From: a virus
Lineage: Duplodnaviria; Heunggongvirae; Uroviricota; Caudoviricetes
Length of the DNA stretch: 64,000 nucleotides
IMG/VR virus record: IMGVR_UViG_3300021060_000024
Span: 11,577-75,576 of that record
Strand: one strand, 5' to 3'
Position 1 is the first letter of the stretch, and every line of letters starts with the position of its first letter. The translations under genes and the position numbers were made by a program. A model generated the notes under the pieces. It was not told the DNA's origin. It ran no database searches and worked only from the letters and a program-made list of their open reading frames with translations. This document shows positions 22,415 to 58,805 of the stretch, in pieces.

Positions 22415-22424
22415 AAGGACGACC

Positions 22425-44378: not shown

Positions 44379-44755
44379 GCCTCAGTCGGAGAGAGCTCGT
44401 CGGCGGCCGCCCGCAGGGTGGCGACCACCTGCTCCTTGGTGCGCCGGTGGGCGTCGTTGTACCGAGCGAAGCCCAGCTGGTTGAGGTTGTGGCTGACCAC
44501 GAACCTCTCCAGCACCCGCTGAGCCTCGGCATAGGCCTCGGCGGCGGCGTTCTGCTCGGCCTCGGAGCGCTTGTCCGGAGCCGAGGGGCCGACGTAGAGC
44601 TTGGTGACCACGGCCACCGCGCCCAGACCGCAGCAGGGCAGCTTCTCCACCGGAACGTCCAGGTCGTCGTACTCGATCGGGAACATCTGGCCCTGGATCC
44701 AGCCCACCTGCTCGATGTGGTCAGCCGCCTCGCGCAGCACCTGCTCGGTGTTCAC
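44375..44755 (-). CDS. AADH-PCC paralog family member P2
   Basis: VLREAADHIEQVGWIQGQMF...LPCCGLGAVAVV...ARYNDAH...LRAAADEL. Confidence 0.45.
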   Translation of the reverse strand: MNTEQVLREAADHIEQVGWIQGQMFPIEYDDLDVPVEKLPCCGLGAVAVVTKLYVGPSAPDKRSEAEQNAAAEAYAEAQRVLERFVVSHNLNQLGFARYNDAHRRTKEQVVATLRAAADELSPTEA

Positions 44756-45159
44756 GATCCGAGCCTGTTCGCGGCCGCGCGCATCGCGGCGGCGACGTCG
44801 GCCGCCGTGGTGTCTGCGCTGTCGGACCACCGCGGCACGGTGAAGTTGCCCCCCGACTTCTCGTCCACCACCGCGGCCAGGGCATCAACGGCCGCGGTGT
44901 CGAGAGCGGCCGTCGCGTCAGCCTCCTGGCCACCCTCGAACGTGACGGTGGCGTAGATGCTCATCCAGCCGCTCGGGTTGTGCGGGTCCTCGATGAAGTA
45001 GCCGGAGCTGACCGCGATGGCCCCCAGTGCGCAGCAGGAACGTGCGGCCAGGGGCTTGCTGCCGCCCCTCTCGAAGAAGCTCCCCTTGTACAGACCCACG
45101 GTCTCGATGTGGTCGGCGGCCTCGGTGAGAACCTGTGCCGGCGTCTTGGTCTCGCTCAT
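44752..45159 (-). CDS. AADH-PCC paralog family member P3
   Basis: VLTEAADHIETVGLYKGSFF...SCCALGAIAVS...VPRWSDSAD...MRAAANRL. Confidence 0.45.
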   Translation of the reverse strand: MSETKTPAQVLTEAADHIETVGLYKGSFFERGGSKPLAARSCCALGAIAVSSGYFIEDPHNPSGWMSIYATVTFEGGQEADATAALDTAAVDALAAVVDEKSGGNFTVPRWSDSADTTAADVAAAMRAAANRLGS

Positions 45160-45503
45160 GCTGCAGCCTCCTCGGCCTTGAGGCGGTCGGCGGTGGCGCG
45201 CATCCGCCGCAGCACCACCTCCTGGGTGATCTGGGGGTCGTCGTTCCAGGCCACGATGCGGTCGTGGGCGTAGCGCTCGCCGTAGCCCAGGTCGCGCGCA
45301 ACCGCGGCGAGGGCGTCACGCGAGGCGGACTCGCCCACGAAGAGGCTGACCCGGGGCGTCACGACGCGGATGGCGCCGACGACGCAGCAGGGGCGCTGGC
45401 TGTCGGGAGCCTCCACCCCCGAGCGGTAGTAGTGCCCGTCCTGGTTCAGCCCCACGGTCTCGATGTGGTCGGCCGCGGCGCGCAGCACCTGCTCGGCGTT
45501 CAC
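45156..45503 (-). CDS. AADH-PCC paralog family member P4
   Basis: VLRAAADHIETVGLNQDGHYY...PCCVVGAIRVV...VAWNDDPQ...MRATADRL. Confidence 0.45.
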   Translation of the reverse strand: MNAEQVLRAAADHIETVGLNQDGHYYRSGVEAPDSQRPCCVVGAIRVVTPRVSLFVGESASRDALAAVARDLGYGERYAHDRIVAWNDDPQITQEVVLRRMRATADRLKAEEAAA

Positions 45504-46306
45504 GCGTTCACCGGCTCGGTCAGGGCGGCCACGGCGGCCTCGATGGCCATGACGGCGTCGACCTCGGTGGTGTCCTCGCTGGGGACGTCGGCCGGGTCGG
45601 GGCCCTCCAGGCCCAGCAGCGCCTCGGGGACCTGCGTCAGGGCCGCGAGGGCCTTGATCTCCTTGCCCACCATCGCCAGGGCCTCGCCCATCGACTTCAT
45701 GGCCTCGGTGGCCGCCTCGCTCGTCGGCGTCCAGGTCGCCTGGCTCTTGAGGATGCTCACCTCGGCCTCGGTCAGGATCGAGTGGCGCTTGGGGCGCTGG
45801 CCCATGCGCTTGTGGGTGGCCCGCTGGCGCAGCCCGGCCATGCCCCAGCGCTCCACGGCCTCAGCCGCGCCCTGGAAGGCCCCGACGACGGTCTCGACCG
45901 TGACGGCCCCGTGGTCGTTCCATACCGGCACCGCCTGGTCGGTGTTGAGCTCGACCTCCAGGTAGTAGCGCAGCGCGAGCGCGGCCTCGCTGTAGATGTG
46001 GCGGGGGTCGTCCTCGGGCAGGTGTCCCCAGCCGTGCACGCCCGCGCCCTCGGCACCGAGGAGCAGGTCCTGCACGCCCGCGGCGATGCCGATGGCGCCC
46101 AGCGCACATGCCGGGGCGTGCTCGTAGTCCAGGTACTGCTCGACCTTGACGGTCTGCTCAGCGGCGCCGGGGCCATAGAGGTCGATGGGGCCGGGCACCA
46201 CGCGCTGCTTGACGGCGGGGCGGTAGAAGGCCCCGCGGGTCCAGCCGTGGGTCTGGATGTGCTCGGCCGCGCCGCGCAGCACGCCCGGGATGGTCAGAGT
46301 CGACAT
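45500..46306 (-). CDS. AADH-PCC paralog family member P5 (longer, C-terminal extension)
   Basis: VLRGAAEHIQTHGWTRGAFY...PACALGAIGIA...VPVWNDHG. Start at codon 117 of the track ORF. Confidence 0.45.
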   Translation of the reverse strand: MSTLTIPGVLRGAAEHIQTHGWTRGAFYRPAVKQRVVPGPIDLYGPGAAEQTVKVEQYLDYEHAPACALGAIGIAAGVQDLLLGAEGAGVHGWGHLPEDDPRHIYSEAALALRYYLEVELNTDQAVPVWNDHGAVTVETVVGAFQGAAEAVERWGMAGLRQRATHKRMGQRPKRHSILTEAEVSILKSQATWTPTSEAATEAMKSMGEALAMVGKEIKALAALTQVPEALLGLEGPDPADVPSEDTTEVDAVMAIEAAVAALTEPVNA

Positions 46307-46752: not shown

Positions 46753-47209
46753 GACCCTCTGCTGCATGATGACTTATCATCAAGCCATGGATGAGACGAC
46801 GAGGGCGTGGGTCCGCGCAGCCCTGGAGCGCAACGTGGCGCCGCCCAACCAGATGGGCTGCGCGCGCTGGCTGCGCGGAGTGGACGACCTGGGCTTCGGC
46901 CTGATGTGGGTGCCCGACCCTGAGCGGGTCTGGGTCTCTCGTCGGGCTCACCGCATGGTCTACGAGCTGGAGCACGGGCCCACGCGTCGCCTGGTGCGCC
47001 AGACCTGCGGGGACCGGCGCTGCACCACGCTGGAGCACCTGACGCCCGCCACCGTGGCGGGCCGGCCCACCGGGCGCCACATCGACCAGGAGGTGGTCGT
47101 CGCCATCCGGGAGGGCCACCACCGGGGAGAGACCCAGCGCGCCCTGGGGATCAAGTGGGGCGTGTCTCCCTCTCATGTCAGCCGCATCGTGAACGGGCTG
47201 GTCCGGTGA
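46751..47209 (+). CDS. HNH endonuclease with C-terminal HTH (start may be ATG 46766 or 46787)
   Basis: RRAHRMVYELEHGP...VRQTCGDRRCTTLEHL, then HTH ETQRALGIKWGVSPSHVSRIVNG. Confidence 0.5.
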   Translation: MTLCCMMTYHQAMDETTRAWVRAALERNVAPPNQMGCARWLRGVDDLGFGLMWVPDPERVWVSRRAHRMVYELEHGPTRRLVRQTCGDRRCTTLEHLTPATVAGRPTGRHIDQEVVVAIREGHHRGETQRALGIKWGVSPSHVSRIVNGLVR

Positions 47210-47343
47210 GTTCGGGCCCCGAAGCCGAGGGTGTTCGTGTGTTGCGCGGCATCCTCATCGGCATGGCGCTGGGCGTGGGCTGCTGGTGCGTGGCTGGCGC
47301 GTGGCTGGTGCTGGGACTCCTGGCCGTGGCCGCGTGGCGCTGA
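47206..47343 (+). CDS. tiny membrane peptide (45 aa)
   Basis: GTGA overlap with the HNH stop. ILIGMALGVGCWCVAGAWLVLGLLAVAAW. Its stop overlaps the next ATG. Confidence 0.3.
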   Translation: MSSGPEAEGVRVLRGILIGMALGVGCWCVAGAWLVLGLLAVAAWR

Positions 47344-47900
47344 TGGACTGGCGCGAGGAGTGCGCCGGGCCCTTCGAGATCTCTGGCGCCGAGATCGAGG
47401 CGGGGGAGCTGGCGGGGCGGGCCCTGCCGGCCTCGCTGCGCACCACCTACCGCCGCGGCGCCAAGCACGGCTGGGAGTGCCGGGTGGTGTCCTGGCGACG
47501 CCCGGCCCTGCGCCCCGACGGCAGCATCAAGCCCCGCACGCGTGATGAGCCTCGGTTCGACCCCGACTCCGGCAAGCCCCTGCTGACCGAGCGGGGCGTC
47601 CAGCGGGTGAGCAAGGTCGAGATCGAGGGCAGCGCGCTGATGCAGGACACGCTGCTGCTGCAGGCCACCACCGCCTGGGAGGGCCACGTCCAGCGCCTGG
47701 CCGTGGTGTGGACCGACGGCAAGTTCGACGCGGCCTGGCACCGCTGGCCCCACCTGGGGCCGCTGTCCAGTCCCGAGGTGAAGACGTTCATGGAGTCGGG
47801 CGGCATCCCGCCGCACCGTCAGCAGGGTGTGCCCACCACCGTGTGGGCCGAGCGCGCGGCCAAGGCCGCGGCGAAGGAGGAGGACGAGGATGGCGAGTGA
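47343..47900 (+). CDS. hypothetical protein (185 aa)
   Basis: Internal ATG of track ORF 47286..47900, coupled to the upstream peptide. Confidence 0.4.
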   Translation: MDWREECAGPFEISGAEIEAGELAGRALPASLRTTYRRGAKHGWECRVVSWRRPALRPDGSIKPRTRDEPRFDPDSGKPLLTERGVQRVSKVEIEGSALMQDTLLLQATTAWEGHVQRLAVVWTDGKFDAAWHRWPHLGPLSSPEVKTFMESGGIPPHRQQGVPTTVWAERAAKAAAKEEDEDGE

Positions 47901-48231
47901 GACCCCGACGATCAAGCTGGTGGCACCGACCCTGCCGCCTGGCCACTACTACGAGGTCGAGGAGGCCAAGAGCGGCTGGGTCAAGGTCGCCGTCATGGAG
48001 GCCAACACCGAGCGGGGCACCGCGGGACTGCGCCCTCCCAGGCGGGTCATGGGCCGGGAGGCCAGCGCCCAGAGCACCCTGGCCTGGGGCACCCTGACGC
48101 CGCGCGAGCGTGTCGAGCTGGTGATGCAGCAGGTGGGTCACGAGTTCCTCGACCGCTGGAGGGCCGACCAGGAGAGCGCGGAGATGAAGACCTACATCGG
48201 TCGCTACGACGGCTCGGGGACCAAGCTGTGA
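47890..48231 (+). CDS. hypothetical protein (113 aa)
   Basis: Track ORF tail (MASETPTIKLV...). Confidence 0.4.
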   Translation: MASETPTIKLVAPTLPPGHYYEVEEAKSGWVKVAVMEANTERGTAGLRPPRRVMGREASAQSTLAWGTLTPRERVELVMQQVGHEFLDRWRADQESAEMKTYIGRYDGSGTKL

Positions 48232-48569
48232 GCCGGGCCGAGCCCACCACGCAGTACGAGGCCCTGCGGGCGCTGGGGGCGCCCAAGCTGCCCGAGGGCT
48301 ACGCCTACGCCACGGACCGGACCGACTACTACGGCAGCCGCGTCGTGGCCCTGGTGCGCCTGCCCGACGCCAGCGCTCGTCGCCCGCGCGAGCACGTCGA
48401 GAACTCCTTCGTGGTCGACGGCATCTGGCGCATCCTGTGCCTGGGCGAGCAGCGCGCCATCATCCTGGGCTGCCACGTCATGCGGGCCCTGCTGGCTCAC
48501 GACCTGCGGGCTCAGGCTCGCCATGAGCGTCGCCAGGCGCGGCTCAAGGTCGACGGGCCGCTGCGGTGA
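48228..48569 (+). CDS. hypothetical protein (113 aa)
   Basis: GTGA overlap. Confidence 0.4.
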   Translation: MSRAEPTTQYEALRALGAPKLPEGYAYATDRTDYYGSRVVALVRLPDASARRPREHVENSFVVDGIWRILCLGEQRAIILGCHVMRALLAHDLRAQARHERRQARLKVDGPLR

Positions 48570-48919
48570 GCGGGGTGGTCTACGACGGGCTGCTGAGCAA
48601 CGGCGCCCCCGCGCTGCCGGATGAGCACTACTACGAGGTGCGCTGGCGCCACACCCTGGGGATGACCTACGTCAAGGCGCGGGTCAAGCGGCGGGTGTGG
48701 CTGCCCTGGCTGCCGGGGTATGCCTGGAGCCGTCAGGTCACGCCCTGGTACGAGGCCTACGTGCGTGACGAGGACGCGCGCAGCGCGATCAGCGCCTACG
48801 CCTACGTGTGCGCCCGCACCGTGCAGGAGGGTGAGCTCCTGAGCGCCAAGAGCAAGCGCGAGCGCCACCTGGCCGAGTTCGCGGGCAAGCATGGCCCCCT
48901 GCGGGGCCAGGGTGCCTAG
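48566..48919 (+). CDS. hypothetical protein (117 aa)
   Basis: GTGA overlap. Confidence 0.4.
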   Translation: MSGVVYDGLLSNGAPALPDEHYYEVRWRHTLGMTYVKARVKRRVWLPWLPGYAWSRQVTPWYEAYVRDEDARSAISAYAYVCARTVQEGELLSAKSKRERHLAEFAGKHGPLRGQGA

Positions 48920-49265
48920 GGCGCGGCGGTTGTGTCGCTACTCCAACCGCGACGGCATCGGGGCCCACGCCGCGGACCCGGGCCGGACCGACTGTGCCGA
49001 GCACCGCCAGGCCGAGGCCGCGGCGCGAGGCGGCACCACGGCGCGCGGCTACGGCGCGGCCCACCAGAACTCCCGGGCTGCCTGGGCCCCCCAGGTGGCC
49101 ACCGGCACGGTGACCTGCTGGCGGTGCCAGACGCTGATCAAGGCAGGCCGGCCCTGGGTGCTGGGCCATCGGGACGACCGCAGCCTGCCGAGCCATCCTG
49201 AGCATTTACATTGTAATCAGCGCGCCGCGGGGCTGTCCCGGCACGGGATCGGAGAGGGAGCCTGA
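48891..49265 (+). CDS. small HNH endonuclease (start possibly GTG 48907)
   Basis: CWRCQTLIKAGRPWVLGHRDDRSLPSHPEHLHCNQ (CxxC...GH...H...C..N pattern). Confidence 0.4.
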   Translation: MAPCGARVPRARRLCRYSNRDGIGAHAADPGRTDCAEHRQAEAAARGGTTARGYGAAHQNSRAAWAPQVATGTVTCWRCQTLIKAGRPWVLGHRDDRSLPSHPEHLHCNQRAAGLSRHGIGEGA

Positions 49266-49582
49266 TGGGCTGGCAGCAGAAGATCACTGAGCCGGAGCCG
49301 CCGCACCCCTGCAAGGTGCCCAGCGACACGGTGCTGGAGCGCGAGCGGGTGCTGGCGGGCTCGACGTGGAAGTGCGAGGAGTGCCAGGCGCTGTGGCGCT
49401 TCCAGGGCTGGGGCCACGGTTTCGGCGCCGAGCAGGGTGAGTCCTGGTCGAAGTGGGAGCGGCTGGCCCAGCCGCGGCCCCAGCCGGTCTTCGGCGGCTT
49501 CCAGGGTCGACCGGCCGCGGTGCGCGACGACCCGAGCACCCAGCCGGGCGGAGGTGCCGTCCAGCAGCAGTGGGAGCGCTGA
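49265..49582 (+). CDS. hypothetical zinc-ribbon protein (105 aa)
   Basis: ATGA overlap. PCKVP...WKCEECQALW. Confidence 0.4.
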   Translation: MGWQQKITEPEPPHPCKVPSDTVLERERVLAGSTWKCEECQALWRFQGWGHGFGAEQGESWSKWERLAQPRPQPVFGGFQGRPAAVRDDPSTQPGGGAVQQQWER

Positions 49583-49630
49583 GACACAGAAGGGCCCCGC
49601 CAGGATCGCCTGGCGGGGCCTCTCGCTGTC

Positions 49631-49972
49631 TCAGGCGGCCTGGGTGGTCCCCGAGGCCCGGGAGCGCTTGTCGGCCGCCACAGCGGCCGTACAGGGCCTG
49701 CAGCGGCATCCGTAGTCCCGATAGCCCGTGGCCGAGCCGTGGACGTGGTCGGGCGTGGGGGCCGCGCGCAGCCGAGCGCGGCGCTGGGCGGGGTAGCAGC
49801 CGGTGCAGCGACAGACCGGGGTCCGGTAGTGGCGCCGACCCAGCACCGGCGGCAGGCCGGGGCCCGCTCCGTCGCGACGCGCGGCGTGGGTGTCGGTGGC
49901 CTGGCCGCGCAGGGTGCGGCAGCGGTCCAGCGGCAGGGCCAGGCAGACCGGGCAGGGGTTGGCCAGGCTCAC
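49631..49972 (-). CDS. Cys-rich protein with two GCRCxxC-type motifs (113 aa)
   Basis: GTG in a GTGA overlap with the upstream stop. RHYRTPVCRCTGCY and GSATGYRDYGCRCRPCTAA. N-terminal CPVCLALPLDRC. Confidence 0.4.
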   Translation of the reverse strand: MSLANPCPVCLALPLDRCRTLRGQATDTHAARRDGAGPGLPPVLGRRHYRTPVCRCTGCYPAQRRARLRAAPTPDHVHGSATGYRDYGCRCRPCTAAVAADKRSRASGTTQAA

Positions 49973-50250
49973 GCGCTCAGCGCCTCCGGCGGCAGGGTCT
50001 GGTTGGCCGGGCGGACTGCGCCGGGCAGCAGCGGGGCCATCGGGCGCACCCCGCCGGGGCGGGTGTCGGCCTTGAGGTCGCGGCGCCGGTTCCAGGCCCG
50101 CACGCGGGCCCGCTCGTTGTCGCACACCATGCACTTCCAGGCACTCAGGGTGGTGCCGTCCGCGCGCAGGCCGTGCTGAGCTCGGGCGTGGGTCACGTCC
50201 CCGTGCAGCGGGCAGGGACGGGTCTCCTTGATGCGGGTGGAGCGGGGCAT
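49969..50250 (-). CDS. Cys-rich zinc-ribbon protein (93 aa)
   Basis: GGAGGA RBS. CPLHGDV...WKCMVCDNERARVRAW. Confidence 0.45.
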   Translation of the reverse strand: MPRSTRIKETRPCPLHGDVTHARAQHGLRADGTTLSAWKCMVCDNERARVRAWNRRRDLKADTRPGGVRPMAPLLPGAVRPANQTLPPEALSA

Positions 50251-50313
50251 GTCGTCCTCCGGGATGGGATGGCCCCGGCCCGCCGCAGCGAGCCGGGGCC
50301 GGTGGATGGGTGG

Positions 50314-50760
50314 TCAGTCCAGACTGACGGTCTCCCAGGGCTGGGCGCCCTGCTCGGCAGCGTCACGCTCCTTGGCCAGGCGGACAGCCTCGGCCCACGG
50401 CTTGCCGCAATCCTGGTACTCCTGAGCGCGGCGCAGCAGGTCGTGGGCTCGATCGTCCAGGCTGAGCAGGTCCCCGCCGGCCAGGCCGCCGACGGTGCAG
50501 CCCTCGTTGTAGGTGCCGACGTCGTCGATCGTCAGGCCGTTGTCGGCCAGCACCTGCCCGACGATGCAGCAGGGCTCGCCGGGGGCGTAGCGGGCGGCGA
50601 TGCCCTTGCGGGCGTTGGTGTCGTTGGTGGCGCCAGCGGTGTAGGTGTCGAAGAAGTACAGGCAGGTGCCGCCCATGTCTTCCAGGTTGCGCTCGGGCTG
50701 CTTGGCGGCGGCGGACTCCAGCGCGGTCAGGGCCTGCTCGAAGGTCAGGGACAGGGTCAC
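50314..50760 (-). CDS. divergent AADH-PCC paralog family member P6
   Basis: ...YAPGEPCCIVGQVLADNG... has the PCC-x-GA core. The N-terminal motif is divergent. Confidence 0.35.
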   Translation of the reverse strand: MTLSLTFEQALTALESAAAKQPERNLEDMGGTCLYFFDTYTAGATNDTNARKGIAARYAPGEPCCIVGQVLADNGLTIDDVGTYNEGCTVGGLAGGDLLSLDDRAHDLLRRAQEYQDCGKPWAEAVRLAKERDAAEQGAQPWETVSLD

Positions 50761-50792
50761 GGTGATCAGCTCTCTCTCGTGGTGGTGGTGGG

Positions 50793-51374
50793 TCAGGAGT
50801 TGGACAGGTCGACGTACTTCTCGGCGGACTCCAGCAGGGCCGCCAGCGTGGTGGTCGACAGAACGACCTCCCGGTCGCCGTGAGTGCCTTCGACCAGCGT
50901 GCGGCTGCTCTCCAGCACGGCCTGGGTGCGCTCGTTCAGAGCGGCGATGACGCCGGCGCGAGCGCGAGCGGCCTCGATCTCGATTCGCTGGACACGCTGG
51001 GCCCGCTCACGCTGAGCGATGCGAGCGGCCACCCCCTCGGCCCAGGGGCCGCGCAGGGTGGCCAGGCGCACCACCTCGACGGTGGTGCTCTCCTCGCCCT
51101 GGTCGAGGGTGTCGAAGCTGTACTTGGGCCCGGTCAGCCGGCACAGCACGCCACGGTCTGCGGAGGAGTCGTGGGACTCGGGCAGGCGTGCGGGGGCCTG
51201 CACGGTGGTGCCGTCCTCCAGTGTGATGACCACAGGCTCGGCGTCGCGGGTGATCCACGAGGAGCGCAGGCGCACGAACGGGCGCGAGTCCAGCACGGTG
51301 GCACGGGCGGGGTAGTCGTTGGTGCTGCGCTGGTAGGCGTAGACCTCGCCGACCTTGATCTCGGAACGCTTCAC
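50793..51374 (-). CDS. hypothetical protein (193 aa)
   Basis: Track ORF. A degenerate copy of the promoter cassette lies upstream (51385-51440). Confidence 0.4.
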   Translation of the reverse strand: MKRSEIKVGEVYAYQRSTNDYPARATVLDSRPFVRLRSSWITRDAEPVVITLEDGTTVQAPARLPESHDSSADRGVLCRLTGPKYSFDTLDQGEESTTVEVVRLATLRGPWAEGVAARIAQRERAQRVQRIEIEAARARAGVIAALNERTQAVLESSRTLVEGTHGDREVVLSTTTLAALLESAEKYVDLSNS

Positions 51375-51433
51375 AGTGATCTCCTCAGTGGTGGTGGTGG
51401 TGGGTAGAGCGTAGGCGGCGCGGGGTGGAGCGT

Positions 51434-51571
51434 CTAGTCGCGCAGGTGGTCGGGGTCGGGCTCGGTGGGCTCAGGGGCGTCGGGGCACCAGCCGTCGTTG
51501 TGGACGTAGTCGGGGCAGCCGCAGAGCAGGCAGTTGCCGTGACCGTCGTCGGTGAAGACGTAGTCGCTCAC
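51434..51571 (-). CDS. tiny Cys-rich peptide (45 aa)
   Basis: GTG in a GTGA overlap with the upstream tiny gene. GHGNCLLCGCPDYVHNDGWC. Confidence 0.25.
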   Translation of the reverse strand: MSDYVFTDDGHGNCLLCGCPDYVHNDGWCPDAPEPTEPDPDHLRD

Positions 51572-51702
51572 CAGCGGTACTCCTTCGGCAGGCTTCGGCG
51601 CAGCACGTGGCGCCGACGTCGGTAGGTGATCTCGCACGCGGCAGCCACCAGGACGGTTCCGCCGATCGTGACCATGGCCAGGGCGGCCAGGAACAGGCTC
51701 AC
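51568..51702 (-). CDS. tiny membrane peptide (44 aa)
   Basis: Hand-translated: VSLFLAALAMVTIGGTVLVAAACEITYRRRRHVLRRSLPKEYRW. Confidence 0.25.
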   Translation of the reverse strand: MSLFLAALAMVTIGGTVLVAAACEITYRRRRHVLRRSLPKEYRW

Positions 51703-51718
51703 AGTGATCAGCTCCAGG

Positions 51719-52258
51719 TCAGTAGCGGTCGGTGGCGGTGGAGATGGGCAGGGCCAGCCCCTGGGCCGTGGCCCACTGGCGGGCGGTGTACGAGCGCTCG
51801 GGGGTGCCGTCGGCGGCGTAGGTCACGACGTAGTGGAAGGCGACGCCGGGGAAGCGAGCGTCGTAGCGCACCTCGGGGCACGAGCGGTTGCCGTCCACGC
51901 GGCAGTCGAAGCGCGGATCGTCCTCCTCGACGACGGGCGCCGGCGCCGCGGGCAGCACCTCGGGGGCCACGACCTGCAGGCGCACGGCCGGCTGCACGAC
52001 GTCGGTGCGCAGGGCGGCGGTGGCCGCCTGCTGGGGGGTGGCCAGGGCCAGCACGGTCAGCAGGCCGGCGAGCAGGATCGGCAGCGTGGACAGCAGCGCG
52101 CGAGCGTGGCGCGGGGTGGGGCGACGGGTGGCGCGGTGACGAGCCGAGACGAGCCGCCCTGCGGATCGGCTCGTCGCGCGGTGACGAGCCGGGCGGGTGC
52201 GGCGGGTCAGGACGCGCAACGTGGCGGTGAGGGTGGGGGTGGCGGCGTGAGCAGACAT
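51719..52258 (-). CDS. secreted hypothetical protein (179 aa)
   Basis: Signal peptide LLSTLPILLAGLLTVLALATPQQAATAA. Driven by promoter cassette E1. Confidence 0.45.
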   Translation of the reverse strand: MSAHAATPTLTATLRVLTRRTRPARHRATSRSAGRLVSARHRATRRPTPRHARALLSTLPILLAGLLTVLALATPQQAATAALRTDVVQPAVRLQVVAPEVLPAAPAPVVEEDDPRFDCRVDGNRSCPEVRYDARFPGVAFHYVVTYAADGTPERSYTARQWATAQGLALPISTATDRY

Positions 52259-52288
52259 CAGGGGCCTCCGAGCGGTGGTGGTGGGCTT

Positions 52289-52355
52289 GTGGGTAGAACG
52301 TTACGGGGTAGAACGTGGCGGTGCAAGCATCGGCCCTGTGACCTACGTCACAGGG
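52289..52355 (-). promoter_or_regulatory. promoter/operator cassette E1 (variant)
   Basis: GTGGGTAGAACGTTACGGGGTAGAACGT plus perfect palindrome CCCTGTGACCTACGTCACAGGG. On the minus strand: TTGCAC, 17 bp, TAACGT. Confidence 0.5.
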
Positions 52356-52374
52356 CCGATAGCTGCGCGTCTGA

Positions 52375-52806
52375 TCAGATCGGCTGGCCCGCCAGAACGC
52401 GCGCCAACTCCTCCTCACTGACGACCCGGTCCTGGTCGAGCACCGGCTGGAAGTTGCCGCGGCGCGTGCGGACGACGTGATCCCAGCGGTTGCCGCGCAT
52501 GTTCGACAGGAGGATCTCGTGGTCTCCGGGGAGCGCCTTCACGTCGGCGGCGTCGAGCATCTCGCCGATGTAGATGTAGCGCCGACCAGCAGGGGCGCCG
52601 TCCGGCAGCCACTTCTCGTTGCCCTCGTCGTCCGTCCAGCGGACCCAGGTGCGCGCCTGGAGGCGCACCCCGAACCAGCGGCCGTCGTCGGGCATCTTCG
52701 GCAGGACGGCCTGTGGCGTGCCGCGTTCGACCTGCACCGAGGCGCCCTCCTCGCTCATGAACGACCCCGGGTAGAGGGGCGTGGCGTGGATGCGGTTCTC
52801 CTTCAT
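52375..52806 (-). CDS. hypothetical protein (143 aa)
   Basis: AAGGAGAG RBS. Track ORF. Confidence 0.45.
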   Translation of the reverse strand: MKENRIHATPLYPGSFMSEEGASVQVERGTPQAVLPKMPDDGRWFGVRLQARTWVRWTDDEGNEKWLPDGAPAGRRYIYIGEMLDAADVKALPGDHEILLSNMRGNRWDHVVRTRRGNFQPVLDQDRVVSEEELARVLAGQPI

Positions 52807-52843
52807 GGCCTTGCTCTCCTTCTGTCAGTAGTCCTGGGGATGG

Positions 52844-53059
52844 TCAGGTCAGGTACTGCAGGTCGATGCCGAGCATGTCGGCGAACGTGTCCACAGCGGC
52901 GGTGTTGCCGACGTCGATGCCCTCCTGCAGGCGGTCGACGGTGGCGCGGGTGGTGGCGTCCTCCAGGGCGAACCAGGGCGCGACGGCGTCGCGGACCTCG
53001 GTGGAGTCGACGGTGGCCGAGCCGGAGCCGTCGCGGGCGGTGACGCTGATCAGTGCCAT
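52844..53059 (-). CDS. hypothetical protein (71 aa)
   Basis: Internal ATG (MALISVTARDG...) of the track ORF. Its start abuts the Lsr2-like gene stop. Confidence 0.35.
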   Translation of the reverse strand: MALISVTARDGSGSATVDSTEVRDAVAPWFALEDATTRATVDRLQEGIDVGNTAAVDTFADMLGIDLQYLT

Positions 53060-53063
53060 GGGG

Positions 53064-53519
53064 TTAGTCCTCCAGGGTTGCGTTGGGGTTGCGCCGGCGC
53101 AGCCCGCCGAGGCGGTACTGACCGGCGCGGTGGGCGTCGAAGGTGTCCAGGGTGTCCCACTGGGTGCGGAACGGGCGCTCGGGGTGGGCCTGGTTGTAGG
53201 CCTTGACCAGCGCCAGGGGCAGCGTGCCACGGTCGGGCACATCCACCGGGGAGACCCGCCGCGCCCAGGCGCGCACCTCGGCGGCGCTGGCCCGGTCGGG
53301 CTTGACCTCGACGGGCTGGCGCGAGGTCTGGGTGTGGCCGGCCCAGCGGCCGGGGCCACCCTTGAGTCGTGGGACGGGTGTGGCGTAGGGCCGGCCGGGG
53401 TGGGCCCGGTTGTAGGCCTCGACGTAGACGTCGGCCAGGCGGCCGCGCGAGGTGACGGCGTCGGGCTCGATGTCGCGCAGCCAGGCGCGGACCTCAGCCA
53501 TGGTGGCGTACTCGCTCAT
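53064..53519 (-). CDS. protein with two tandem Lsr2-like C-terminal DNA-binding domains
   Basis: AEVRAWLRDIEPDAVTSRGRLADVYVEAYNRAHPGRP and AEVRAWARRVSPVDVPDRGTLPLALVKAYNQAHPERP, compared with Lsr2 [30 protein letters not shown]. Confidence 0.55.
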   Translation of the reverse strand: MSEYATMAEVRAWLRDIEPDAVTSRGRLADVYVEAYNRAHPGRPYATPVPRLKGGPGRWAGHTQTSRQPVEVKPDRASAAEVRAWARRVSPVDVPDRGTLPLALVKAYNQAHPERPFRTQWDTLDTFDAHRAGQYRLGGLRRRNPNATLED

Positions 53520-53521
53520 GG

Positions 53522-53944
53522 TCAGTAGCCGAACTGCAGCACGCGAATGGTCTCGGACTCCTCGGTGGTGGACATGACCGAGGCGATGAGCGCGATGGCC
53601 CAGGCGAACCGGCGGTAGGGGTCGGTGCGCTGGTCGGCCTTGAGCGCGTCCAGCAGTGCGCGGGCGGGGACGGCGGTGAGCCGGGCGCCGTACTTGTCCT
53701 CGGTCAGTACCTGCTGCGAGGCGCCCTCGGGGTCGAACATGGTCATGTCGCTGGGCACCTCGGTGCTGGTCTGGTAGAAGCGCTCGCCGGCGGCGCGGGC
53801 CTGGGCCAGCAGTGCACCGGTGGCGGTCTCGCGGCCGGCGTTGGCCAGGTCGATGGTGGCCAGTGTGCGGCAGTCGACCAGCGGGCCGTCCTGCATGTAC
53901 TCGGGGTACTCGCGGACGATGAACAGACGGGTGTCGTAGGACAT
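53522..53944 (-). CDS. hypothetical protein (140 aa)
   Basis: Track ORF. First gene downstream of cassette E2. Confidence 0.4.
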   Translation of the reverse strand: MSYDTRLFIVREYPEYMQDGPLVDCRTLATIDLANAGRETATGALLAQARAAGERFYQTSTEVPSDMTMFDPEGASQQVLTEDKYGARLTAVPARALLDALKADQRTDPYRRFAWAIALIASVMSTTEESETIRVLQFGY

Positions 53945-53987
53945 CGTGATCAGCTCCAGGTGGTGGGTGGTGGTGCTTGATGGGTAG

Positions 53988-54044
53988 AACGTTACGGGGT
54001 GGTGCGGGGCGGGTCAAGCCCCAGCTCTGTGACCTGCGTCACAC
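53988..54044 (-). promoter_or_regulatory. promoter/operator cassette E2
   Basis: Minus strand: GTGTGACGCAGGTCACAG ... TTGACC - 17 bp - TAACGT - TCTACCCATCA ... ACCACCACC ... GGAG - ATG. Confidence 0.55.
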
Positions 54045-54080
54045 CCGCCGGGGGCCGTGCTGGCCCCCGGCGGGCGGCGC

Positions 54081-55310
54081 TCACATGATGGCGTGGAGGA
54101 TGGCGGCCGCCATGAGCGGCGGTACGGCGTTGCCCACCTGCTGCTGCTGGGACGTCTTGCTGCCCTGCCAGGGGTAGTCGCGGTCGAAGGACTGCAGCAC
54201 GCCAGCCTCGGCCTGGGTCACGCGGACCGAGCCGGGGGTCTTCTGGCGCGGGGGGTCGCCAGCCTTGCGGTAGCCGGGCGCCGCGATGACGTCGCCCGCG
54301 AACGTGCCGACCACGGTCGGGGAGGTGTCGCCCTCGACGGCAGCCACGGGCTGCCAGCGCGTGCCGGTGGCGAGCGTGTCGCGCGGGTCGATGTCGCCCG
54401 ACTCCTGCCAGGTCACCGCGTTGCCGCGACCACCGAAATGGATCGTAGGGGCAGGAGTGGACTCGTGACGCACGGCCGTGTTGGCCTGGTTGCCGTTGTA
54501 GAACCACTGCCCGCGCGTGACCTTGCTGGTGACGGCAGCAGCGGGCTGCTCGGCGGTGCGCACGCCACGGGCGGCGGGGTCGCCGCCGGTGCCGTAGTTG
54601 GACCGGATGGCCTCGCCGTGGTGGGCGTCGAGCGCGTCGGCCATGGAGACCCACGAGGGCACGCCCTCGTCGCGGCGCTGGGGGTCGCGGGGGTAGTAGG
54701 CGCTGTGGGTGGGCTCAGGCAGGGACACCTCGCGCACCCGGGAGGCCACCAGCACGGCGCGGCGGCGAGTCTGCGGCACGCCGTACTGCTCGGACTTGAG
54801 CACGCCCGTGGCCACGCTGTAGCCCCACTCGCGCAGGTGCTCGGCGTAGGCCTCCCACACGGGCAGGACGGCGGGCACCTGCTCCAGCGCGACCCACTGG
54901 GGGCGCTGGTCGCGGATGACGGTCAGCGGGTGCAGGACCAGGACCGACCGGTCGTCGAGCGTGGCATCGGCCACGATCTCCACGGCCTGCTCGGGGCTGT
55001 AGCCGCAGCCGACCAGGTCGACAGCGTCGAGCAGGTGGCCCAGCGCAGCGCGACCGGCGCCCTTGCCAGCGGCCGTGAACGTCTGGCACGGCGGACTAGA
55101 GATGTAACCGACGTGGGCAATCAGATTGACCAGGCGCACGTCCCCGCGGATGCGCTGGTGACCAGCGGCCACGGCCGTGGCGCACGCGTTGGCGTCCCAC
55201 TCCACGCCCATGACACGGGCGGGGTCGACGCCGAGCAGGCGCAGCCCCTCGTCCCAGCCGCCGGGGCCGGCGAAGTCGTCGCGGATGTCGATGATCGTGG
55301 GGGTGGACAT
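54081..55310 (-). CDS. DNA (cytosine-5)-methyltransferase (orphan)
   Basis: Motif I FAGPGGW, motif IV SPPCQTFTAAGK, motif VI-like LEQVPAV, motif VIII QTRRRAVLVAS. Start MSTPTIIDI (the longer N-terminus in the track is promoter read-through). Confidence 0.8.
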   Translation of the reverse strand: MSTPTIIDIRDDFAGPGGWDEGLRLLGVDPARVMGVEWDANACATAVAAGHQRIRGDVRLVNLIAHVGYISSPPCQTFTAAGKGAGRAALGHLLDAVDLVGCGYSPEQAVEIVADATLDDRSVLVLHPLTVIRDQRPQWVALEQVPAVLPVWEAYAEHLREWGYSVATGVLKSEQYGVPQTRRRAVLVASRVREVSLPEPTHSAYYPRDPQRRDEGVPSWVSMADALDAHHGEAIRSNYGTGGDPAARGVRTAEQPAAAVTSKVTRGQWFYNGNQANTAVRHESTPAPTIHFGGRGNAVTWQESGDIDPRDTLATGTRWQPVAAVEGDTSPTVVGTFAGDVIAAPGYRKAGDPPRQKTPGSVRVTQAEAGVLQSFDRDYPWQGSKTSQQQQVGNAVPPLMAAAILHAIM

Positions 55311-55341
55311 GGTCGGTGCCTCCGTGGTGGGTGGTGCCGGG

Positions 55342-55409
55342 CTGATGGGTAGAACGTTACGGGGTGGCGGGGGGCCGGTCAACCCCTGGCAGCGTGACGT
55401 GCGTCACAC
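55342..55409 (-). promoter_or_regulatory. promoter/operator cassette E3
   Basis: GTGTGACGCACGTCAC palindrome, TTGACC, 17 bp, TAACGT. Confidence 0.55.
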
Positions 55410-55438
55410 CGGATGAGCCGGCCCCCCCAGCTGATGAT

Positions 55439-55942
55439 CTAGAAGCACGCCGAGCAGGTGCAGTGGCGGCGCTTGCCGGACTGGCAGCGGGGGGAGGGGT
55501 CGTGCGGGGGCAGCACCCCGTCGCGGCAGGACTGGCAGGGCTCGGACTCGCGCAGCAGCGCAGCCAGGCGCTCGACGTGGTTGCGCTGGTCGTCGGCGCG
55601 GGAGCGCAGCGTGGTGGCCAGGGCCACGGAGGATGCGTCGCGCATCTTGCGCAGGATGGTGCCGAGGTAGGCGCGCTCGCCCGCCAGGAGATCGGTGAGC
55701 CCGTCGCGGTCCAGCACCAGCAGCGTGGTGTCGTCGCTACCCACGTGCAGCACGACCGGCACACCGTCCAGCGTGGTGCCGTGGTGGGTGCCGACGGGGA
55801 GCATGCGGCCGGGGGTGGCGCGGGCAGTGCTGGCCAGCCCGTCGTGCAGCGGCATGCCGAACGTGTCGGCCGGGTCGGTGATCGTGACGTGCTGGTCGGA
55901 CAGGACGTGACCCAGGCGGGTGATGGTCTCGGACATGATCAT
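55439..55942 (-). CDS. hypothetical protein with Cys-rich C-terminus (167 aa)
   Basis: Starts MIMSE (ATGATCATG). C-terminal CQSCRDG...RCQSGKRRHCTCSAC. Confidence 0.4.
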   Translation of the reverse strand: MIMSETITRLGHVLSDQHVTITDPADTFGMPLHDGLASTARATPGRMLPVGTHHGTTLDGVPVVLHVGSDDTTLLVLDRDGLTDLLAGERAYLGTILRKMRDASSVALATTLRSRADDQRNHVERLAALLRESEPCQSCRDGVLPPHDPSPRCQSGKRRHCTCSACF

Positions 55943-56025
55943 GGCCTCCGTGGTGGTGGGTGGGTGGTGGGCGTGCCTGGCCCCGGTGCCGGTCCGGGTG
56001 CGCCCCACGGCGCCAGGCCAGTAGG

Positions 56026-56232
56026 TCAGTGCTGCTCGCGCCAACGGTGCAGGGAGAGGGCGGACTGAGCCGACCCGATGTCACCACCCACCTCGCCGAC
56101 GACGTGAGCCAGGCAGACCGGGCACAGCGTGTGCCAGGTGTTGTCACCAGCGTGGCTGATGCTGCCGACGCGAGCGACGATGATGGGGGTAGCGGGGGTG
56201 GCGGTGGGGGTGAGGGTCTTGGACATGATCAT
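56026..56232 (-). CDS. small zinc-ribbon protein (68 aa)
   Basis: Also starts MIMS. CPVCLAHV. Driven by cassette E4. Confidence 0.4.
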   Translation of the reverse strand: MIMSKTLTPTATPATPIIVARVGSISHAGDNTWHTLCPVCLAHVVGEVGGDIGSAQSALSLHRWREQH

Positions 56233-56258
56233 GGCCTCCGTGGTGGTGGGTGGTGGTG

Positions 56259-56327
56259 CCTGATGGGTAGAACGTTACGGGGTGGTGCGGGGCGGGTCAA
56301 CTCCTGGCGGCGTGACGTGCATCACAC
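56259..56327 (-). promoter_or_regulatory. promoter/operator cassette E4
   Basis: GTGTGATGCACGTCAC palindrome, TTGACC, 17 bp, TAACGT. Confidence 0.55.
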
Positions 56328-56397
56328 CCGGATGGGCCGGCCCCAGAGCTCTGGACCTTGGTCCCCGGGCCCGCGCGCGCGGGCCCGGGGTGGTGCC

Positions 56398-57078
56398 TCA
56401 CGCGGACAGCGCGTGCCCGTCGAACGCACCGGGGGCCCAGTAGTTGCGGCGCCACGCGATCCACGTCACGGCCTGCACCTCGCTGGCGGCCACGGGGCGA
56501 CCCATCTCACGCGAGAGGATGCGCGCGGCCCGTCGGTAGCCATCGGCCGCCCACGCGTAGCGGGTGCCGGTGATGCCCGGTCGCACAGGCAGGCTCTCGT
56601 CGCCGGAGATGGCGTCGTCGCGGTGGCGCGTGTTGGTCACGATGTCCCACGCGTGGCGGTCGATGCACACGGCGTCGAGGTCGGTGCCGCCCGAGACGAT
56701 GCACGCCCAGAAGTTGGTGATCTTGGGGGAGTTGAGCGTAGTCGGGATGTCGGCACCCGAGAGGATGGCGGCCGCCTTGCGCAGCCCGGTCCCGAGGTAG
56801 CCCGCCGTGGTGGTGATGCCCTCGGCGTGGTCGGCCAGGATGCGCCCGGCGAGGTTGACGTTCGCGCCCCAGGAGTTGAGCGGGCTGGTGGCCGCGATGA
56901 CACCGGCGGCCTGGGCCAGCGTGACGCCGTAGCGGGTGGCGAGCGCGTCCGCGATGCGCTGCGCGTCGGCATACCAGCCGATGCCGGTCACGATGCCGTC
57001 GGCGATGGCCAGCCGGTACAGGGTGGTGATGTTGCGGGTGGCGAGCGCGTCGGTGATGGGGGCGGTGAAGCGAGCCAT
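56398..57078 (-). CDS. hypothetical protein (226 aa)
   Basis: Track ORF. Driven by cassette E5. Confidence 0.45.
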   Translation of the reverse strand: MARFTAPITDALATRNITTLYRLAIADGIVTGIGWYADAQRIADALATRYGVTLAQAAGVIAATSPLNSWGANVNLAGRILADHAEGITTTAGYLGTGLRKAAAILSGADIPTTLNSPKITNFWACIVSGGTDLDAVCIDRHAWDIVTNTRHRDDAISGDESLPVRPGITGTRYAWAADGYRRAARILSREMGRPVAASEVQAVTWIAWRRNYWAPGAFDGHALSA

Positions 57079-57112
57079 GATCGTGAACCTCCGTGGTGGT
57101 GGGTGGGTCCTG

Positions 57113-57180
57113 CTGATGGGTAGAACGTTACGGGGTGGGGGCTGGGCTGTCCAGCCCCCACGGTGTGACCTGCGTCACAC
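57113..57180 (-). promoter_or_regulatory. promoter/operator cassette E5
   Basis: GTGTGACCTGCGTCACAC (on the plus strand) plus second palindrome GGGGGCTGGGCTGTCCAGCCCCC. TGGACA, 17 bp, TAACGT. Confidence 0.55.
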
Positions 57181-57549
57181 GATGCGGCCCGAGAGCGTGG
57201 CCCGGTAGGCCTGGCGCGCACGCTCCACGCGCACCTCGCGCTCACGGCTGCTCGGGCTGGTGTGGTCGCGCCACTCGATCGGGCGCCACGTGGTAGCCAC
57301 CCCGTCGATGGACGTGTCGGACAGGTGGCGCCCGGTCAGCGCGTAGTACTCCGTGGAGCGCACGGCCTCGCGTCGGTAGCCTGCCGCCTGCTGCGCGTAG
57401 TGGTCGGCCTGGCTGGCCATACCCATGATCCGGAACATGCGGGACTGCGTGATCGCGAACCGTGCAGCGTTGAGCGCGTAGTCGCGGCCGTGGGTGTTCA
57501 CGTCGTACGTGCGTGCGTCGCTGATCTTGGTGGCGAGGGTGGTGGACAT
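57175..57549 (-). CDS. hypothetical protein (124 aa)
   Basis: Track ORF. Driven by cassette E6. Confidence 0.4.
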   Translation of the reverse strand: MSTTLATKISDARTYDVNTHGRDYALNAARFAITQSRMFRIMGMASQADHYAQQAAGYRREAVRSTEYYALTGRHLSDTSIDGVATTWRPIEWRDHTSPSSREREVRVERARQAYRATLSGRIV

Positions 57550-57582
57550 GATCTTGACCTCCGTGGTGGTGGGCGGGTCGTG

Positions 57583-57650
57583 CTGATGGGTAGAACGTTA
57601 CGGGGTGGGGGCTGGGCTGTCCAGCCCCCACGGTGTGACCTGCGTCACAC
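57583..57650 (-). promoter_or_regulatory. promoter/operator cassette E6 (near-identical to E5)
   Basis: Same composite as E5. Confidence 0.55.
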
Positions 57651-57992
57651 CAGCCCGAGGACGAGGTAGGCCTCGGTGCCGTCGGTGCCGGGGTCACCCA
57701 CGGTAACGAAGTAGCGCGGGCCCTGCTCACCCTCGCAGAACGCCAGGGCCACCATGGTGCCCTCACTGTTGGGGGCGTAGTCGCGGAAGACGATCTCGCC
57801 CGTGGCGGGGTCGGTGGTCACGTAGGCGGTGCAGTCATCGGCGACCCGGATGCTCATCTCGTCGGCCGTGGTGGAGAACGTCACTCGGGCCTGTGCGGGG
57901 ACCGTGGTGGAGGCACTGGCGGCCGAGGCGCCGAAGATGGCCAGGGTGAGGAACGCGAGGGTGAGGGCGAGGGTGCGAGCGATGCGGGCCAT
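57645..57992 (-). CDS. secreted hypothetical protein (115 aa)
   Basis: Signal peptide MARIARTLALTLAFLTLAIFGASAASA. Driven by cassette E7. Confidence 0.45.
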   Translation of the reverse strand: MARIARTLALTLAFLTLAIFGASAASASTTVPAQARVTFSTTADEMSIRVADDCTAYVTTDPATGEIVFRDYAPNSEGTMVALAFCEGEQGPRYFVTVGDPGTDGTEAYLVLGLV

Positions 57993-58027
57993 GATCGTGA
58001 TCTCCTGTTCTCGGCCGCCCTGTGCGG

Positions 58028-58095
58028 CTGATGGGTAGAACGTTACGGGGGCCGAGGGTCGCTGTCCACCCCACACCGTGTGACCTGCATCACAG
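58028..58095 (-). promoter_or_regulatory. promoter/operator cassette E7
   Basis: CTGTGATGCAGGTCACAC palindrome, TGGACA, 17 bp, TAACGT. Confidence 0.5.
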
Positions 58096-58329
58096 AGCTC
58101 TGGGTGACCAAGCATCACTGTGGGTAGTGGCCGGCTCAGCCCCATACCTACCGTGCGCACACGCGCGTACCCGCGACCTACCACACCCATAGGTGTGTGT
58201 GCAATGCGTGGGTAGTGCATGGCCATGCATACCCACAACGGCCCTGTACGCCACGCTGCGCCCCTTTACCCCCGTAGTGGCACTACCACCCACGCATGCC
58301 CTGTTCGTGGCGCAGCGTGCATCGGTGCT

Positions 58330-58540
58330 GGTCACAGGCATGATCATTGTGTATGTAAGAACATTGTTTACATGTATGTCATGACATGTGATGCATACAT
58401 TGTGTTGCATGTGTATGCAATCACTACATGTAGTGATCACACTACATGTTGTTACATACGCATGTGATGTATGTATGTTGTGTGCGATGTAACACATAGT
58501 CATTGATCACTACACATAGTCATGCTCACTGTGTGTGTGC
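58330..58540. other. AT-rich palindrome/iteron island (candidate cos/pac or ori) between divergent blocks
   Basis: GC falls to about 35-40% over ~200 bp. Perfect 14-bp palindrome CACTACATGTAGTG. Repeated CATGTGATG(C/T)AT, ACATGT and TGATCAC(T)ACA. Flanked by direct repeats GTGGCCGGCT...ACCTAC(C/G)GTG at about 58127 and 58555. Confidence 0.45.
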
Positions 58541-58805
58541 CTATGCCTACCCACAGTGGCCGGCTACCTACGGTGATGGGTCATGCACGGAGAGCTCCGA
58601 CTACGGTGCGTAACGATCAAGAGCTCAGGGTGATGGGGGTGTGCATGGCCCTCCGCGTTTGTCAGGACATACCCCCACCCCTGGGGGGGTGACCCCTTGA
58701 TCAGCTTCGACGGCTGACCTGTGGAGAGGGGAAAAAACGGGCGGTCAAGTTCAAGAGCATCTGGCGTCACACCAGTAACACGGGCCACGCGGCTACGCTG
58801 CGGGC

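Follow-up and report, generated by a model that had tools for sequence, protein, structure and literature searches.

What reads the palindrome that recurs among the leftward genes of a tailed phage genome is the question raised by a 64,000-nt stretch of the IMG/VR virus record IMGVR_UViG_3300021060_000024 (positions 11,577 to 75,576; hereafter the window). Seven promoter cassettes, E1–E7, of about 100 bp each, were found on the minus strand between positions 52259 and 58095, each with the same order of an 18-bp palindrome, a 9-nt linker, a −35 box, a 17-nt spacer, the −10 box TAACGT and the start region TCTACCCA. The cassettes appear to be paralogous copies of one SigA/sigma-70-type promoter module, and it is highly probable that they are functional promoter units with a protein-binding dyad. 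As to the binder, our answer is tentative: a host factor of the CRP family may gate these SigA-type promoter units.

That the cassettes are repeated had been claimed in an initial annotation of the window, and both the number and the places of the seven copies were borne out by pattern counts and alignment. The pattern GTGTGAC-N4-GTCACAC, with at most two mismatches, was present seven times in the 64-kb window against 0.51 expected, a number reached in none of 100 shuffles. The 20-mer CGTAACGTTCTACCCATCAG of the −10 box and start region, with at most three mismatches, was likewise found seven times (0 expected), always on the minus strand and in all seven cassettes exactly 48 nt downstream of the palindrome start. 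When E1–E7 were aligned, as had been proposed, two conserved islands emerged, the dyad and the −10 box with the start region, and the segments between them had diverged at fixed length. Mean pairwise identity was 0.86 in the arms, 0.53 in the linker, 0.71 in the −35 box, 0.66 in the spacer, 1.00 in the −10 box and 0.93 in the start region, and the flanks were poorly conserved (0.32 in the 10 nt upstream and 0.48 past the start region). Not a single indel separates the palindrome from the start region in any of the copies; only the length of the leader varies.

Some details of the first description were too uniform. The palindrome is perfect in E2 and E3, but the other five copies carry one or two mismatches each, and the −35 sequences TTGACC/TGGACA hold for E1–E6 (five of six positions to TTGACA) but not for E7, which has TTGCAC (3/6). 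The position of −54 given for the palindrome centre depends on an inferred start site: the conserved TCTACCCA sits where the transcript start would be expected. With a SigA-like definition (TTGACN/TANNNT, spacer of 16–18 bp), nine intergenic matches were found in the window, six of them being cassettes. An E. coli-type promoter scan misses the cassettes because TAACGT matches TATAAT at only three of six positions.

Comparison of E2 with E3 showed three substitutions and one indel between the first base of the palindrome and the ATG, and unrelated sequence beyond; the unit that was copied thus extends from the palindrome to the start codon. The dyad can therefore be regarded as a promoter-associated, sequence-specific element, since E1 has a dyad without a leftward gene upstream, the duplicated unit begins at the dyad, and the distance from dyad to −35 is invariant while the linker sequence drifts. 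The same three observations uphold the earlier view of the palindrome as a part of the promoter module and not the end of the upstream gene.

The same arrangement was found far outside the window. IMG/VR was first scanned for the dyad alone (GTGTGAYGNANGTCACA) with no linker length imposed. Of the 128 dyad sites, 11 were followed by exactly 9 nt, TTGACA/C, 17 nt and TANNNT, where our own estimate of the chance total is about 0.3; among the other linkers of 5–15 nt none qualified except two weaker sites at 7. A stringent 21-base pattern (TGTGAC-N4-GTCACA, 10 nt, TTGACA, 17 nt, TANNNT, equal to a 9-nt linker after the 18-bp palindrome) then recovered 75 IMG/VR loci, often with two to four copies and at most four, together with 18 GTDB genome contigs, against less than one by chance (rough own estimate). 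Altogether these 93 loci, with a guanine-cytosine (GC) content of 35–64%, include 124 exact modules, and E1–E7 share the module geometry with variant −35 boxes. A scan for the TTGACS variant of the −35 box gave just 16 single matches. Relaxing the dyad reveals arrays: the locus L103 has four cassettes, each before a small leftward gene and divergent from the terminase, as in the window.

Clustering of open reading frames (ORFs) placed 74 of the 93 module loci in one protein-linked group, within which 46 share a terminase of about 660 amino acids and 30 a WhiB-like protein, the latter identifying these 30 as actinophages. The terminase of L103, the one compared, is unrelated to that of the window, and the proteins of the module loci gave solely generic HNH, EndoVII and tail-collar matches to window proteins. 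The module is carried outside this group too. In chromosomal-looking contigs of metagenome-assembled genomes (MAGs) of Actinomycetes and Acidimicrobiaceae a conserved leader of about 185 nt comes after it, then a secreted protein with a 3D domain; in a Longilinea contig the module stands upstream of a solute-binding protein, in an Elusimicrobia contig upstream of a type IV pilin, and in eleven short Clostridia-MAG contigs upstream of a MazE/AbrB-like gene. In one IMG/VR locus with a GC content of 62% (L176:7270), the dyad CTGTGACGCAGGTCACAC, near the E2 sequence of the window, lies between divergent promoters, both −35 boxes being exactly 9 nt away.

The module loci were also rich in another host-type site. 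LexA-type SOS boxes (CGAAC-N4-GTTCG) numbered 80 in 40 of the 93 loci (L041, L076, L086 to L242; 803 kb), where about 0.8 were expected, vs five in 1 Mb of controls. These boxes are often near the promoter modules, the window itself having none, and their number indicates that module-bearing phages do embed sites of host global regulators.

As far as this shared geometry goes, the cassette is apparently one case of a widespread promoter module, here high in GC and present in seven copies. Since dyad and distance are kept across phages otherwise sharing nothing, a conserved cellular binder explains them more easily than a fast-evolving phage repressor or structure alone, and the shared layout in unrelated phages suggests a conserved, probably host, regulator.

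Two further observations concern these loci. In five of the MAG contigs (L159, L160, L162, L167, L174), the leader of about 185 nt, GAGAAAAGACAAGG...GGTGACYGTCCYAGAGACCGCCG..., precedes a secreted protein with repeats and the 3D domain; it had no match in Rfam and may be an undescribed regulatory leader. One IMG/VR locus with a GC content of 38% (L130) has more than 15 CRP-like dyads of the GTGTGAT-N4-ATCACAC type in 9.8 kb, most of them away from a recognisable promoter.

Among conserved cellular proteins, CRP/GlxR appears to be the best match by sequence and upstream position. The dyad core TGTGA-N6-TCACA was matched at 16 of 16 positions in five cassettes and at 15 of 16 in two, where T is changed to C at the least critical position. 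With at most one mismatch the core occurs seven times in the window (1.07 expected), each time within a cassette, and the positions GTGA...TCAC are invariant. TGTGA-N6-TCACA is the consensus of Escherichia coli CRP, and the motif obtained for Mycobacterium tuberculosis CRP by chromatin immunoprecipitation sequencing is closely similar (PMC4117774, PMC10187061). GlxR of Corynebacterium glutamicum has the same consensus, and a perfected site raised both binding and promoter activity (PMC7999487). In M. tuberculosis, whiB1 is activated from a class I site, CRP1, at −58.5 (PMC2844151), upstream CRP sites associate with activation genome-wide, and the abundance of CRP is that of nucleoid proteins (PMC4117774). 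The dyad centre of the cassettes and the −35 centre are about 21 bp apart, two turns of the helix, which gives a predicted position of −54 ± 2.

In the mechanism proposed, the cassettes and variable GC hairpins would split the leftward arm into seven or eight separately initiated accessory-gene units. A host CRP-family dimer would bind the dyad 9 bp upstream of the −35 box, in a class-I-like position, and the bound dimer would co-activate or gate all units jointly, so that expression of the array would be tied to host physiology. The start site, promoter activity, identity of the binder and activation as opposed to repression are here inferred and not shown. No CRP-family protein was found among the approximately 100 window ORFs scanned with Pfam. 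The idea of a single-regulator regulon, put forward in the initial annotation, is plausible; its choice of the regulator from within the window is incomplete, as the same geometry occurs in many phages that share no regulator with this one within the fetched stretches, which speaks at least equally for a conserved host factor. More tentative still is a broader proposal, that unrelated actinobacterial phages across the phylum wire accessory arrays near packaging genes to host CRP/GlxR by a consensus box fixed 9 bp upstream of a strong SigA promoter, and thereby could read the metabolic state of the host, as LexA boxes read DNA damage, before these genes are committed.

Several points weigh against a host CRP-family binder. 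A centre at about −54 corresponds to neither the class I (−61.5) nor the class II (−41.5) position of E. coli and is 4 bp from the whiB1 site; the figure itself is counted from a predicted start, and CRP is a candidate binder. The −35 boxes are good and the spacing is 17 bp, so an activator is perhaps dispensable. C6 and G11 (GTGAC...GTCAC) are more conserved than in the published CRP logos and could mark another protein. The closest relatives L015, L034 and L035 have repeated promoters without the palindrome. The fetched phage loci are 1–15 kb long, so that a shared phage regulator is possible elsewhere in the genomes, and the chromosomal matches come from a fixed-distance pattern, the binning of phage contigs into MAGs being unreliable. 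Finally, the pointer to a host species is weak, the best bacterial homologue of a wall hydrolase of the phage being from Quadrisphaera, with 45% identity.

Terminase homologues of 60–80% identity define a clade of phages of about 75–78 kb. In L015 the leftward genes, with about 100 bp between one and the next, lie beside the terminase operon in an architecture like that of the window, with six copies of a repeated promoter TTGNNN-17-CATGMT-GGTCACA (core GTGCATNMTGGTCACA) lacking a dyad, and three copies of this L015-type core, GTGCATNMTGGTCACA, were found in L035. In both, the promoters stand upstream of leftward genes (L015:1-7000, L035:1-1400), hairpins abut or span the −35 box, and the terminase is about 63% identical to that of the window. 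L034 has a further promoter type, TGnTACGCT-GTCAC. The closest homologues of the DUF7178 protein of the array are in L036 and L037 (64–65% identity), where the cassette is absent, and TGTGA-N6-TCACA was absent from all relatives examined. Multi-promoter arrays are accordingly a trait of the clade, and the dyad was added in the window lineage. Searches with the exact cassette gave only single chance matches in IMG/VR and none in JGI metagenomes or GTDB genomes, so the full cassette sequence is private to this contig; a scan of metagenomes with a DUF7178 profile gave distant matches only. The assemblies of several relatives break within the repeated-promoter region.

The relatives bear also on the strongest alternative, which we consider somewhat unlikely: that the palindrome is the operator of a dimeric regulator encoded by the phage, which switches the array in a temporal programme, and that the likeness to CRP sites is coincidence or mimicry. 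Dyads of this kind, 18 bp long with arms of 7 bp, typically belong to phage helix-turn-helix (HTH) dimers, repeated repressor-bound operators are established in Cluster A (PMC9283540), and the conservation of the GAC/GTC positions goes beyond what CRP requires. That the close relatives are without the palindrome would fit a regulator that one lineage acquired along with its sites. The window encodes at least two HTH proteins that are clear, an XRE-type protein at 3683–4045 (−) and a small HTH_17/MerR-like protein at 35562–35756 (+), both candidate binders, and the weak HTH protein at the end of the array (49631–49972) is a third candidate. However, the promoter of the XRE gene itself (TTGACT-17-CATCAT, 4043–4080, apparently leaderless) has no dyad, and the same dyad at the same 9-nt distance is found in many phages that share no regulator within the examined flanks, and also at chromosomal promoters. 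Moreover, a site at −46 to −63 leaves RNA polymerase unoccluded, which makes simple repression awkward. The XRE-type gene belongs to a leftward island (3400–4904, −) within the rightward structural module, together with a secreted NlpC/P60-LysM hydrolase, a hairpin and small Cys-rich ORFs; it resembles a unit of the immunity or moron type, in a phage where the ORF scans found no integrase.

It is improbable that the binder is some other conserved host regulator whose operator is of the TGTGA type with 7-4-7 geometry. The main candidate is Rex, in which case the array would respond to the NADH/NAD+ ratio. Rex occurs in actinobacteria and Firmicutes, and its operator TTGTGAA-N4-TTCACAA shares with the dyad the 18-bp 7-4-7 geometry and the TGTGA/TCACA core (PMC5355995, PMC2883068). 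The distribution of Rex would fit the module matches in Clostridia, Chloroflexi and actinobacterial MAGs. Yet every copy in the window is mismatched at four of the 14 specified positions (1, 7, 12 and 18), including the conserved A7/T12, and the validated sites of Streptomyces avermitilis have at most three mismatches (PMC5355995). The Rex repressor normally overlaps the promoter, and the genes downstream of the chromosomal modules (wall protein, solute-binding protein, pilin) are not typical targets.

Equally doubtful is that the palindrome is a nucleic-acid structure only, either a 3′ hairpin (terminator, insulator or RNA stabiliser) or a recombination landmark by which the cassette was spread. 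The palindrome does stand at or over the upstream stop codon in E2 and E3, that of E7 is extended to a 14-bp stem (52329–52360, −), and the cassettes have clearly been duplicated and recombined. All four internal arm mismatches are G-U wobbles in the sense RNA, with 95.9% paired cells; in the covariation test, the score was reached by 251 of 500 shuffles. Alone, the dyad folds at a weak −5.9 to −10 kcal/mol and has no T-tract, no intrinsic terminator was called at any of the cassettes, and Rfam gave no family match within the array. Stronger GC hairpins of unrelated sequences lie alongside in four cassettes on the minus strand, across the −35 box of E2 (57607–57629) and of E3 (57137–57159), upstream of E4 (56363–56390) and abutting E6 (54045–54073). 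The possibility that the palindrome is a generic terminator, named in the initial annotation as what would overturn its reading, was thus not borne out, and a plain terminator role is unlikely. E1 keeps its palindrome without an upstream gene, and structure only would not preserve the sequence and the −35 distance across unrelated phages of 35–71% GC. In addition, the dyad may act secondarily as a 3′ hairpin of the RNA or as a roadblock formed by protein. Sites of WhiA/WhiB, LexA, LacI-type regulators, TnrA (N7) and P2 Ogr (TGT-N12-ACA) were ruled out by spacing or sequence.

The units that a CRP-family factor would gate are arranged as follows, all on the minus strand. The 17 genes G1–G17 form one leftward block (49631–57992) served by E1–E8, and for the array the source annotation and our own gene calls agree. 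E1 (57993–58095) has the palindrome CTGTGATGCAGGTCACAC at 58078–58095, the −35 box TGGACA at 58063–58068 and the −10 box TAACGT at 58040–58045; its leader and ribosome-binding site precede G1 (57645–57992), a signal-peptide-like protein. E2 (57550–57650), with the perfect palindrome GTGTGACGCAGGTCACAC (57633–57650), a −35 box at 57618–57623 and a −10 box at 57595–57600, serves G2 (57175–57549), and the TGA stop of G1 falls inside its palindrome. In the same way the stop codon of G2 falls inside the palindrome (57163–57180) of E3 (57079–57180; −35 57148–57153, −10 57125–57130), whose target is the DUF7178 gene G3 (56398–57078). E4 (56227–56327; palindrome 56310–56327, −35 TTGACC 56295–56300, −10 56272–56277) serves G4 (56026–56226) and G5 (55439–55936). 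Upstream of G5 the CA-rich leader recurs with the ribosome-binding site and the first codons but without a promoter (55937–55975). The 46-nt stretches 55918–55963 (G5) and 56208–56253 (G4), covering leader, ribosome-binding site and the first six codons, are 96% identical, which indicates that cassette recombination extends into coding N-termini.

E5 (55311–55409; palindrome 55392–55409, −35 TTGACC 55377–55382, −10 55354–55359) precedes G6 (54081–55310), a C5 DNA methyltransferase. E6 with its abutting hairpin occupies 53945–54073 (palindrome 54027–54044, −35 TTGACC 54012–54017, −10 53989–53994) and serves G7–G10 (52375–53944), including the tandem Lsr2-like G8 (53064–53519). E7 (52259–52360; palindrome 52336–52353, weak −35 TTGCAC 52321–52326, −10 52298–52303), which carries a duplicated ACGTTCTACCC in its spacer, serves G11–G13 (51434–52258). 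E8 (51375–51436) is degenerate and without palindrome, its promoter lying at 51401–51436; it has TAGACG, 17 nt and TACGCT, then CTACCCA, a CA-rich leader and a ribosome-binding site, and serves G14 (50793–51374) onwards. The last gene of the array (49631–49972) is the one with a weak match to an HTH DNA-binding family, and a canonical stem-loop with a T-rich tail (49593–49620) ends the block at the convergent junction. The earlier description of the genes as monocistronic applies to four units but not to E4 (two genes), E6 (four) or E7 (at least three). The cargo was as described, with the C5 methylase, the tandem Lsr2-like protein and signal-peptide-like proteins, to which DUF7178 is added, and also the spurious 'PRNVLPI' N-termini of ORFs are present.

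The leftward block adjoins the rightward packaging operon divergently across a lower-GC, repeat-rich gap at 58100–58800. The core of the gap (58330–58530) is dense with short palindromes such as ATCACTACATGTAGTGAT, and this tract is enclosed between the two arms of a perfect inverted repeat of 12 nt, CACTGTGGGTAG / CTACCCACAGTG (58116–58127, 58547–58558). In related phages the contigs stop some 2 kb upstream of the terminase, so the gap may be a genome end, a packaging site or an origin. The heptamer CTACCCA of the cassette start region was found 12 times in the window (2.95 expected), 11 of these within 51401–58553; three copies lie in the divergent gap with no recognisable promoter attached. 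The other SigA-like intergenic matches are at 46775 (+), 30422 (−) and 49215 (−). From the first of them, TTGACC-18-TATCAT followed by CAAGCC and ATG, the rightward block 46769–49582 would be transcribed without a leader. At 41422–46306 (−), five paralogous DUF6197 proteins share a single leftward block, a Band 7/SPFH protein being interspersed among them.

The window has a GC content of about 71% and codes for a terminase, an SPP1-type portal, tail proteins, an amidase endolysin, a primase-polymerase/D5 helicase, a YqaJ exonuclease and an endonuclease VII; an ORF of 1,911 amino acids stands in the tape-measure position and was assigned by position. No integrase was found among the scanned ORFs. 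The presence of a WhiB-like protein (frame 22415–22972, +; domain residues 95–162, PF02467, E = 4.5e-12) indicates that the host is an actinobacterium, and the wall hydrolase points weakly to a host of the Kineosporiales or Micrococcales type. The WhiB-like gene lies within a 551-nt 'gap' of our own gene calls, directly after the endolysin. No near-identical cultured relative was found in INPHARED, and the best terminase match to cultured actinophages was at most 51% identical. The window matches the ENA metagenome contig k141_661892 (ERZ27250785, 75,580 bp) with non-linear coordinates, being apparently rotated (circular) and without about 11.5 kb of head genes (MuF-like, scaffold, capsid).

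The timing of early and accessory genes in lytic actinobacterial phages is little understood, and to our knowledge the repeated intergenic motifs of many actinophage clusters have no assigned binder. Here a repeat has a candidate binder of known consensus, a global host regulator, and rigid geometry in at least 75 uncultivated viral contigs, so that an anonymous repeat becomes a hypothesis testable with off-the-shelf proteins such as Crp of M. smegmatis or S. coelicolor and GlxR of C. glutamicum. If a CRP-family protein does bind the dyad, phages would couple accessory-gene expression to host cyclic AMP signalling, the cassettes would be of use in high-GC hosts as compact and strong promoter parts gated by a regulator, and the module would be a sequence signature by which actinophage promoter regions could be recognised in metagenomes. 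If this holds across the phylum, the window, with its high GC and seven copies, would exemplify an undescribed conserved virus-host regulatory interface. If a phage protein binds instead, it would have CRP-like specificity and could compete with host CRP.

In a limited literature search, no paper describing the module or motif in phages was found. The statement of the initial annotation that the architecture was not recognised from described actinophages was nevertheless overstated, since repeats and promoters have been described for Clusters O, EG, EC and EI, and operator arrays for Cluster A (PMC4351075, PMC7302621, PMC9283540). Outside phages, the cassettes are most like the CRP/GlxR class I promoters such as whiB1, where a TGTGA-N6-TCACA dyad stands upstream of, and clear of, a SigA-type −35 box (PMC2844151, PMC4117774, PMC7999487). 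They differ from these in a predicted centre of about −54, which is 4–7 bp off the published −58.5/−61.5, in the near-consensus −35 box and in forming seven phage copies, not a chromosomal regulon; the extra conserved C6/G11 of the window is absent from the published consensus, and binding is here predicted from sequence.

Cluster O phages (Corndog group) have more than 30 copies of a 17-bp dyad, TGTTCGG-N3-CCGAACA, of unknown function, together with eight or nine SigA-like promoters (PMC4351075). Likewise they have a long leftward right arm, several SigA-like promoters and an inverted repeat with 7-bp arms in short intergenic gaps, but the sequence is another, and the dyads have no fixed promoter distance and far outnumber the promoters, whereas in the window dyad and promoter form one unit. 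In Microbacterium phages of clusters EG, EC and EI, and in Cluster K, leftward genes of non-structural function near the right end of the genome are preceded by repeats that stay the same even where the genes differ, that of EG being the 18-bp GATCAACC-NN-GGTTGATC (PMC7302621, PMC3203893). Those motifs lie 14–30 bp before the start codon; the palindrome of the window starts 95–103 nt before the ATG, upstream of the −35 box, and this distance rules out a start-associated repeat of the type of Clusters K, EC, EG and O.

Cluster A phages, with Pleft, operators and stoperators, resemble the window in a leftward early right arm with one site repeated between genes, where a bound protein could block read-through (PMC9283540, PMC6550527). 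Stoperators are, however, asymmetric 13–14-bp sites of a monomeric immunity repressor in temperate phages, and the window site is a symmetric 18-bp dyad. A stoperator of this type was ruled out by that symmetry and by the lack of an integrase in the scanned ORFs. In the Streptomyces phage phiC31, near-identical early promoters with conserved inverted repeats divide the early region; according to descriptions of them, these promoters do not resemble the main consensus of the host, and their repeats are bound by the phage repressor. The likeness is that of a promoter family, each member with an inverted repeat and serving one of several units, and the difference lies in the repeats being bound by a phage repressor. 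Lambdoid morons are promoter-gene-terminator units that were acquired individually and have unrelated promoters; as in the window, accessory genes have their own promoter and a hairpin after the gene, but in the window one promoter sequence was copied seven times. The fusion of a dyad to a promoter at a fixed distance, and a proposed host binder, set the window apart from the repeats and operator arrays described for Clusters O, EG, EC, EI, K and A.

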